The notes below the pieces were generated by a model. That model had not been told where the DNA came from. It ran no database searches and saw only the letters and a list, made by a program, of their open reading frames with translations. The position numbers and the translations under genes are program-made. Shown piece by piece: positions 39,333 to 40,883 of a stretch of 64,000 nucleotides of DNA; the stretch's first letter is position 1; the number at the start of each line of letters is the position of its first letter. The stretch lies in NCBI RefSeq assembly GCF_056746865.1, contig NZ_CM163382.1; one strand, written 5' to 3'.

Positions 39333-40883
39333 ATGCAACGTCGTGATTTCTTAAAATATTCCGTCGCGCTGGGCGTGGCTTCGGCTTTGCCGCTGTGGAG
39401 CCGCGCAGTATTTGCGGCAGAACGCCCAACGTTACCGATCCCTGATTTGCTCACGACCGATGCCCGTAATCGCATTCAGTTAACTATTGGCGCAGGCCAG
39501 TCCACCTTTAGCGGGAAAACCGCAACTACCTGGGGCTATAACGGCAATCTGCTGGGGCCGGCGGTGAAATTACAGCGCGGCAAAGCAGTAACGGTTGATA
39601 TCTATAACCAACTGACGGAAGAGACGACGTTGCACTGGCACGGGCTGGAAGTACCGGGTGAAGTGGACGGCGGCCCGCAGGGAATTATTCCGCCAGGTGG
39701 CAAGCGCTCGGTGACGTTGAACGTTGATCAACCTGCCGCTACCTGCTGGTTCCATCCGCATCAGCACGGCAAGACCGGACGTCAGGTGGCGATGGGGCTG
39801 GCTGGTTTGGTGGTGATTGAAGATGACGAGATCCTGAAATTAATGCTGCCAAAACAGTGGGGTATCGATGATGTTCCGGTGATCGTTCAGGATAAGAAAT
39901 TTAGCGCTGACGGGCAGATTGATTATCAACTGGATGTGATGACCGCCGCCGTGGGCTGGTTTGGCGATACGTTGCTGACCAACGGTGCAATCTACCCACA
40001 ACACGCTGCCCCGCGTGGTTGGCTGCGCCTGCGTTTGCTCAATGGCTGTAACGCCCGCTCGCTCAATTTCGCCACCAGCGACAATCGCCCGCTTTATGTG
40101 ATTGCCAGCGACGGTGGTCTGCTACCTGAACCGGTGAAGGTGAGCGAACTGCCGGTGCTGATGGGCGAGCGTTTTGAAGTGCTGGTGGAGGTTAACGACA
40201 ACAAACCCTTTGACCTGGTGACGCTGCCGGTCAGCCAGATGGGGATGGCGATTGCACCGTTTGACAAGCCGCATCCGGTAATGCGGATTCAGCCGATTGC
40301 TATTAGTGCCTCCGGTGCTTTGCCAGACACATTAAGTAGCCTGCCTGCGTTACCTTCGCTGGAAGGGCTGACGGTACGCAAGCTGCAACTTTCTATGGAC
40401 CCGATGCTCGATATGATGGGGATGCAGATGCTAATGGAGAAATATGGCGATCAGGCGATGGCCGGAATGGATCACAGCCAGATGATGGGCCATATGGGGC
40501 ACGGCAATATGAATCATATGAACCACGGCGGGAAGTTCGATTTCCACCATGCCAATAAAATCAACGGTCAGGCGTTTGATATGAACAAGCCGATGTTTGC
40601 GGCGGCGAAAGGGCAATACGAACGTTGGGTTATCTCTGGCGTGGGCGACATGATGCTGCATCCGTTCCATATCCACGGTACGCAGTTCCGTATCTTGTCA
40701 GAAAATGGCAAACCGCCAGCGACTCATCGCGCGGGCTGGAAAGATACCGTTAAGGTAGAAGGTAATGTCAGCGAAGTGCTGGTGAAGTTTAATCACGAGG
40801 CACCGAAAGAACATGCTTATATGGCGCACTGCCATCTGCTGGAGCATGAAGATACGGGGATGATGTTAGGGTTTACGGTATAA
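39333..40883 (+). CDS. cueO: Multicopper oxidase CueO (cuprous oxidase), Tat-secreted
   Basis: ATG at 39333 gives 516 aa; twin-arginine signal [14 protein letters not shown]; Met/His-rich insert; C-terminal [13 protein letters not shown] copper site. Confidence 0.95.

Follow-up and report, generated by a model that had tools for sequence, protein, structure and literature searches.

Genetic context and identity of the cueO gene

The window, meaning the whole stretch of 64,000 nt that was analysed, includes an open reading frame (ORF) on the + strand (39333-40883) for a protein of 516 amino acids (aa). This protein begins with MQRRDFL, and its ATG start codon at 39333 is preceded by AAGGAAATAACT. 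In the mechanical ORF list for positions 38500-42500, a single long + strand frame (39294-40883) was found to contain the methionine-rich peptide described below. The TTG codon at 39294 was rejected as the start of the gene, as it is merely the first possible start codon of this frame and the RefSeq annotation is 39333-40883. The coordinates of the RefSeq cueO gene in strain 118UI are identical (39333-40883).

A phmmer comparison of the protein with all PDB chains identified chains from entries named 'Blue copper oxidase CueO', which matched residues 1-516 with E = 0 and ~1197 bits, and the methionine-rich segment was 100% identical in the alignment. The NCBIfam equivalog model NF008205 ('multicopper oxidase CueO') also matched residues 1-516, scoring 982.7 bits and passing its cut-off of 525, and the runner-up NCBIfam model, FtsP, reached 298 bits, below its cut-off of 581. 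The NCBIfam models for FtsP, PcoA/CopA, laccase and ascorbate oxidase all fell far under their cut-offs for this protein. Three multicopper-oxidase domains, Cu-oxidase_3, Cu-oxidase and Cu-oxidase_2 (Pfam PF07732, PF00394 and PF07731), were found. The DNA sequence of the gene is 100% identical to that of annotated cueO in several E. coli strains, and cueO is annotated in 5424 of 5426 complete E. coli genomes in RefSeq. An earlier sequence-only reading of this DNA had assigned the gene to CueO, and the PDB match, the NF008205 score and the RefSeq annotation all support that assignment. The window gene is E. coli cueO and the segment is the ordinary methionine-rich insert of CueO; nothing in this analysis contradicted the identification.

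Twin arginines (R3 and R4) are present at the start of the protein, and residues 1-20 matched Pfam TAT_signal with 21.1 bits, slightly under the cut-off of 22.7. In the PDB chains of the mature protein (e.g. 1kv7) the first residue corresponds to residue 29 of the query, as expected if a Tat signal peptide of 28 residues is cleaved off.

The gene order, speD-speE-yacC-cueO-gcd-hpt, is the canonical one and is the same in K-12 and 118UI. The sequence at 39257-39287 upstream of cueO, TTGACCTTCCCGTAAGGGGAAGGACTATGCT, was read as a promoter of the sigma-70 type whose long spacer holds a dyad. This dyad is a perfect inverted repeat (CCTTCCC-N5-GGGAAGG; 39261-39279), which we take to be a putative MerR-type CueR operator. 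The promoter string, including the dyad, is identical in K-12. cueO is a member of the CueR regulon (PMC12510620). Downstream, the spacer between cueO and gcd is 46 nt long here, whereas it is 201 nt in K-12 and includes REP-like palindromes (~155 nt) that are absent from the window. The hairpin found in this spacer is probably a terminator shared by the two genes. The coordinates of all features are collected in Table 1.

From murD to hrpB, the window is collinear with the genome of E. coli 118UI; the first 52.8 kb contains 3 mismatches and the last 9.9 kb has 1. Collinearity is broken by an IS2 of 1331 bp (52821-54151) that has a 5-bp GAATT duplication on its flanks and interrupts a fimbrial-like adhesin gene. 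No tRNA genes were found in the 64-kb window.

Table 1. Coordinates of cueO, its methionine-rich segment and neighbouring features in the window
Feature	Coordinates	Strand	Details and basis
cueO promoter with MerR-type (CueR-like) dyad, TTGACC ttcccgtaaggggaagg ac TATGCT	39257..39287	+	read from sequence
cueO CDS (periplasmic multicopper (cuprous) oxidase CueO)	39333..40883	+	516 codons + stop; PDB, NCBIfam, Pfam, RefSeq
Tat signal peptide, residues 1-28 (MQRRDFL...AVFA)	39333..39416	+	RR motif, Pfam TAT_signal, PDB chain starts
Met/His-rich peptide, residues 355-400 (14 Met, 5 His, 8 Gly)	40395..40532	+	exact string match; identical to PDB CueO and K-12
Ordered Met-rich helix, ~residues 357-371	40401..40445	+	limits approximate, inferred from PMC12041951, PMC6155172
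Antisense 81-codon 'shadow' ORF, not a gene	40431..40676	-	ORF list; unannotated in 118UI, K-12
Flexible Met/His/Gly-rich remainder, ~residues 372-407, including Cu7 ligand M376	40446..40553	+	PMC6155172, PMC11494321, 2yxv
MAGMDHSQM motif, residues 376-384	40458..40484	+	= PcoA residues 378-386
D439-M440-M441 codons (D439, M441 = domain-3 Cu5 ligands)	40647..40655	+	residue check; roles PMC11494321
GC-rich hairpin ATGCCCGGA-tctc-TCCGGGCAT	40903..40924		read from sequence; 46-nt spacer, convergent cueO/gcd

The methionine-rich segment and the copper ligands

The 46-residue peptide noted in the sequence-only reading was found exactly, on the + strand at 40395-40532 (residues 355-400), and the interval in which it had been placed (40380-40560) adds 15 and 28 nt of padding. 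The description of the peptide as Met/His-rich and of low complexity holds. Methionine makes up 14 of the 46 residues (30.4%) but 3.2% of the remaining protein (hypergeometric p = 8e-9), and the peptide is the lowest-entropy 46-residue window of the whole CueO protein. Enrichment of histidine is modest across the whole peptide (5/46, p = 0.045) and clearer in its C-terminal half (5/22, p = 0.002). The insert lies within Pfam Cu-oxidase_2, the match to which resumes at residue 399 (profile position 23). Alignment to CueO structures, which had been put forward as a check, supports the assignment, as the segment is the same in the solved chains.

The window CueO keeps all of the copper ligands defined in the literature. 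The T1 ligands H443, C500, H505 and M510 (precursor numbering) and all eight trinuclear cluster histidines (H101, H103, H141, H143, H446, H448, H499 and H501) are present, as are the four ligands of the substrate copper, Cu5 (M355, D360, D439 and M441), and those of Cu6 (M358 and M362) and Cu7 (M364, M368 and M376). The helix region of the segment holds the Cu5 ligand D360, both Cu6 ligands and the Cu7 ligands M364 and M368.

The segment had been described as a loop, and this applies to its Met/His-rich remainder but not to its N-terminal part, which is a stable helix (PMC6155172; PMC12041951). A methionine-rich (MR) helix has been described in CueO, most crystal structures of which show disorder at residues 370-398 (PMC6155172). 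In the CueO of Hafnia alvei, helix P359-Y373 was stable in molecular dynamics, with D362 of the Hafnia protein corresponding to D360 in E. coli (an offset of 2), and the loop was the most mobile part (PMC12041951). A PDB deletion variant, 2yxv, aligns with the query up to residue 356 and then shows a gap, which fits the published design in which a Gly-Gly linker takes the place of the methionine-rich region of CueO (PMC12041951).

Variation within E. coli

The K-12 protein (YacK, b0123; PDB 1KV7, 1N68, 3OD3, 3NT0 and others) is the product of the same gene at the same locus, and shares with the window protein its length, segment peptide and copper ligands, and with the window gene the promoter dyad. 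The window and K-12 cueO genes differ at 28 of 1551 nt, leading to three substitutions (G60S, A464T and D489E), all of which are outside the segment and away from the metal sites. Within the segment there is one silent nucleotide difference, at 40466. [quoted passage not shown]

A 271-nt query across the segment matched 5431 E. coli records, and 25 rows were sampled evenly down the ranking. Single-piece, full-length matches with at least 97.0% identity were seen in 24 of the 25. The remaining match, in strain L37 (86% over 42% of the query), was not accepted as a natural variant, as it is an annotated pseudogene with many frameshifts and looks like an assembly error. Divergent alleles from ST131, O139:H1 and O155:H21 carry 5-8 nt changes in the 271 nt, and at most one change in the 46 residues (G399S in ST131). 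Within E. coli, the segment thus behaves as conserved coding sequence under purifying selection and not as a slippage-prone array.

Matches with at least 99% identity were also found among plasmid records. These were not taken as mobilisation of cueO, as they include a 4.9-Mb 'plasmid' record that is a misfiled chromosome.

Coding sequence, repeat element or overlapping gene

The sequence-only reading had cautioned that the codon repetitiveness of the segment could be mistaken for a repeat element, and the impression on which such a call would rest is a visual one. The + strand ATG density of the 64-kb window peaks here, at 16 ATG in 181 nt (mean 3.1, sd 1.9), but methionine has the single codon ATG, which accounts for the ATG-rich look of the DNA. 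Tandem Repeats Finder identified no tandem repeat in 40200-40750 at a minimum score of 30, and a repeat search with a 7-nt seed over 550 nt returned nothing beyond scattered two-copy matches of 10-15 nt. Exact repeats in the interval are 8 nt long at most (ATGATGGG), and when the codon order of the 46-codon segment was shuffled, 438 of 500 trials gave a repeat of this length. The intact gene in the 24 evenly sampled E. coli genomes, with its full-length, single-piece matches, and the same length in the three divergent alleles also argue against a repeat element, or an array that is tandem or prone to slippage, with a chance location inside a gene, and such an origin is extremely improbable. 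The segment is a compositional bias at the protein level without a DNA repeat. A genuine gene for a His-rich peptide, overlapping cueO in the 81-codon ORF on the other strand, is just as improbable. The ORF is listed among the mechanical ORFs, but it has a GTG start, lies entirely inside cueO and coincides with no annotated feature in 118UI or K-12, and its richness in histidine mirrors the ATG codons of cueO, which read as CAT on the other strand. An Rfam scan found no RNA family in or near the interval.

Variation of the insert among CueO homologues

An exhaustive phmmer search of 1.84 billion representatives of 50%-identity clusters identified 1081 proteins with E <= 1e-30. Among the best 150 of the 1081, 119 full-length sequences were aligned, and 117 of these had the T1 H-C-H ligands. 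The span of the insert was measured between the conserved anchors R-x-F-x-L and I-N. This span is 63 residues in the window CueO and ranges from 11 to 85 residues (median 17) in the 117 homologues, 56 of which have no insert (span of 16 residues or less). A span of at least 30 residues was found in 25 homologues, with at least 15% methionine in 13 of them and at least three histidines in 6. The methionine fraction increases with the length of the insert (Spearman rho 0.42, p = 2e-6, 117 homologues; the background outside the span is 3.3% methionine), and the insert sequences of the homologues are unrelated except in composition. The segment had been called characteristic of CueO. This is true of its composition but not of its sequence, given lengths of 11-85 residues and methionine-richness in only about half of the long inserts. 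Weak conservation of the length and sequence of the domain is also on record (PMC11494321; PMC8456105). Variability of the insert between genera alongside near-invariance within E. coli may arise because composition and flexibility are under selection, and not the exact sequence.

P0001, the closest of the 50%-cluster representatives, has a segment of 85 residues with 18 Met, compared with 63 residues and 14 Met over the same span in the window CueO. H. alvei CueO (PDB 8R4F; delta-Met form 8R4H), a PDB match at 2.2e-218, has the same fold, Cu5 ligands and insertion site. In its methionine-rich domain too, a stable N-terminal helix leads into a disordered loop, and the activity of the enzyme depends on the strength of Cu(I) chelation, as in E. 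coli (PMC12041951). However, this domain exceeds that of E. coli CueO by 22 residues and 6 Met, and the Hafnia enzyme oxidises strongly chelated Cu(I) more efficiently (PMC12041951).

Methionine-rich segments are also found in more distant oxidases. That of Rhodobacter capsulatus CutO (MRS) binds copper, varies in length and sequence, and includes MDHG and MDHS motifs, but, unlike that of CueO, it is located between domains 1 and 2 (PMC8456105). The multicopper oxidase of Thermus thermophilus has a methionine-rich, copper-binding hairpin that is likewise variable in length and sequence. Deletion of the hairpin did not raise phenol-oxidase activity and left cuprous oxidation unchanged, unlike in E. 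coli CueO (PMC11494321).

Resemblance to PcoA and CopA

Plasmid-borne PcoA and the CopA of Pseudomonas (TIGR01480) are periplasmic, Tat-exported three-domain multicopper oxidases with a stretch rich in Met, His and Asp. PcoA in the plasmid collection shares ~25% identity with the window CueO (tblastn), and the window CueO scored 117.7 bits against TIGR01480 (PcoA/CopA family), not reaching the cut-off of 478.95. The longest common substring is the 9-mer MAGMDHSQM, at residues 376-384 of CueO and 378-386 of PcoA, and none of 2000 composition-preserving shuffles of both methionine-rich regions had a common substring longer than 7. PcoA has two further copies of the form MDHSxMAGM, and the methionine-rich region of one PcoA (locus L004) includes MDHSSMAGMDHSRMAGM.

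The Pfam limits of PcoA (Cu-oxidase, 172-347; Cu-oxidase_2, 488-604) leave its methionine-rich stretch in the linker between these domains. When PcoA was added to the 118-sequence alignment, its RTIELH (490-495) paired with RKLQLS (349-354) of CueO and was followed by only LTGHMEK at the site of the insert. The Pfam limits and this profile-anchored alignment place the methionine-rich region of PcoA in the linker between domains 2 and 3, and the methionine-rich regions of the two proteins are thus not homologous in position. A pairwise MAFFT alignment superimposed the two regions, and this was dismissed as a compositional artefact on the same two grounds.

The DNA under the shared 9-mer is identical at 25 of 27 nt, with agreement at 4 of the 6 degenerate third positions. 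Exchange of DNA between cueO and pcoA at the 9-mer was rejected as an explanation, as the identity is mostly forced by the peptide (three ATG codons and fixed codon positions 1-2). It seems quite improbable that MAGMDHSQM marks a portable module that handles Cu(I) in some specific way, either as a transient Cu(I) site or as a docking surface for a carrier, that was acquired independently or exchanged, as opposed to a generic by-product of Met/His composition. According to PMC3847284, which cites the 2002 CueO structure paper, a resemblance of the methionine-rich regions of PcoA and CopA to that of CueO was already noted with that structure. The sharing of the motif with PcoA is a small curiosity and not a new finding.

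Role of the methionine-rich segment

The insert comprises ~50 residues placed after the first beta-strand of cupredoxin domain 3. According to published experiments on the identical segment, its N-terminal helix lies on top of the type-1 copper and thereby keeps out bulky phenolic substrates. M355 and D360, together with D439 and M441 from domain 3, form the labile fifth copper site, Cu5, at which the substrate Cu(I) binds; its electron is handed to T1 and then to the trinuclear cluster, which reduces O2 to water. The remainder of the insert is a flexible, solvent-exposed Met/His/Gly loop, the thioethers of which bind Cu(I) transiently and help to draw it away from strong chelators and into Cu5.

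In the published work, the insert covers the T1 copper and is a physical barrier to phenolic substrates, such that its removal increases phenol-oxidase activity ~33-fold (PMC11494321; PMC6155172), and both the MR helix and the loop hinder access to T1 (PMC6155172). As those structures were determined for an identical segment, the same coverage of T1 may be expected in the window CueO (PMC11494321; PMC6155172). Cu5 is the sole substrate site, the contributions of Cu6 and Cu7 being negligible, and a D439A/M441Q double mutant has no cuprous oxidase activity (PMC11494321). The statement in the sequence-only reading that the segment gates access to the substrate copper site is therefore sound as far as the cover over T1 and the barrier to phenols are concerned but incomplete, as the segment also supplies Cu5 ligands and takes part in Cu(I) recruitment, which is the best supported of its additional roles.

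Two delta-Met variants, lacking 358-407 and 361-396, have been studied. With electrogenerated (unchelated) Cu(I) their activity was near that of the wild type, as was protection in vivo, and 10-20% of wild-type activity was left with Cu(I)-BCA (PMC11494321). This loss with Cu(I)-BCA, together with the longer and more efficient domain of H. alvei CueO, supports recruitment of chelated Cu(I) by the methionine residues collectively. Oxidation of weakly bound Cu(I) does not require the segment, and neither did copper resistance in the published in vivo assays (PMC11494321; PMC12510620).

That the main role of the segment is instead non-catalytic, with gating and recruitment secondary, is doubtful, whether the role is pictured as a Cu(I) sponge, as metallation of apo-CueO when copper is scarce, or as docking of a Cu(I) carrier. 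The copper resistance still given by delta-Met CueO in vivo is in keeping with such a role, and roles in maturation and partner interaction were left open by the authors (PMC11494321); the occurrence of MAGMDHSQM in PcoA at a non-equivalent position would also suggest a portable motif with a specific job. However, resistance to anaerobic copper stress was affected by catalytic activity and not by the copper-binding domain (PMC12510620). Once the excess had been removed, no additional Cu(I) in stable binding was seen by ICP, which speaks against a sponge, and an obligatory partner is at odds with the complementation results (PMC11494321). The clear kinetic effects seen with chelated Cu(I) in two enzymes favour recruitment (PMC11494321; PMC12041951). 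The methionine-rich domain of CueO, with its published mechanism, is almost certainly the best explanation overall.

So far, recruitment of Cu(I) has been shown in vitro only, using artificial chelators, and the physiological importance of the segment is less secure than its biochemistry. CueO without the domain still protects in copper-survival assays, both aerobic (PMC11494321) and anaerobic (PMC12510620). The introduction of PMC12041951 does mention an effect on viability when the domain is lost, and its authors call the functional implication open.

The segment is already known, having been crystallised, deleted, mutated and kinetically dissected in this very protein, and it holds nothing new. 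What the methionine-rich domain does in vivo, when cells whose CueO lacks it survive copper stress in the published assays, is a question for the field more than for this window. For annotation, 40395-40532 should stay cueO coding sequence, without masking or a repeat call, and the antisense ORF can be disregarded.

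Genetic context of cueO

Mechanical ORF calls placed the divergent genes yacC and cueO at 38820-39338 (- strand) and 39294-40883 (+ strand), both of which run too far into the shared promoter region. The yacC gene is annotated at 38820-39167 and encodes 115 aa, compared with 172 aa in the mechanical ORF list. The TTG at 39294 was rejected as the cueO start, and the annotated start is at 39333.

Downstream, the spacer between cueO and the convergent gcd gene is just 46 nt long and includes a single hairpin. In K-12 the spacer is 201 nt and includes REP-like palindromes, so the difference is due to a REP insertion or deletion that varies among strains.

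A complete IS2 has cut a fimbrial-like adhesin gene in two (halves at 52144-52857 and 54149-54781). Its terminal inverted repeats are 33 nt and imperfect, and its ORFs (53695-54105 and 52832-53737) match the NCBIfam IS2 TnpA (NF006928) and TnpB (NF006918) models. Strain 118UI is otherwise near-identical to the window but lacks this IS2.

An Rfam search of the window returned four matches at gathering level. The name of one, PssrA ('plasmid-encoded Shigella sRNA A'), is odd for a match at a chromosomal cell-division locus.

Features identified in the window
Feature	Coordinates	Strand	Details	Source
PssrA	7689-7778	+	ftsA/ftsZ junction, chromosomal	Rfam
STnc40	13425-13494	+	secA/mutT junction	Rfam
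naRNA4	13898-13973	+	mutT-yacG interval	Rfam
tp2	25247-25360	-	antisense, pdhR-aceE interval	Rfam
cueO/gcd spacer	40884-40929		convergent genes, 46 nt	
GC-rich hairpin	40903-40924		single, inside cueO/gcd spacer	
IS2	52821-54151	-	complete, 1331 bp	ORF matches to NCBIfam IS2 models
GAATT target duplication	52816-52820 and 54152-54156		flanks IS2	

Database records of cueO

A 100% identical CueO is encoded within the PLSDB record NZ_CP141089.1, a 4.9-Mb E. coli 'plasmid' that is evidently a chromosome placed in the plasmid collection. Chromosomes filed as plasmids are probably the source of at least some of the 10 'plasmid' places in the search of complete E. coli genomes for cueO.

In E. coli strain L37 (locus L003; 1447-2979), cueO carries a pseudogene annotation ('frameshifted; internal stop'). 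Its translation is interrupted by numerous frame breaks, concentrated in the central part and the Met-rich region, for which errors in sequencing or assembly seem a likelier cause than genuine decay.

A motif common to CueO and PcoA

The sequence MAGMDHSQM was found at residues 376-384 of CueO (40458-40484 in the window) and at residues 378-386 of the PcoA encoded by a plasmid-borne pcoA (locus L004; 2483-4297). A common substring longer than 7 residues was obtained in none of 2000 composition shuffles. However, the Met-rich region of PcoA lies in the domain 2-3 linker, away from the insertion site used by CueO. MAGMDHSQM is one motif in CueO and PcoA, carried at non-homologous positions.
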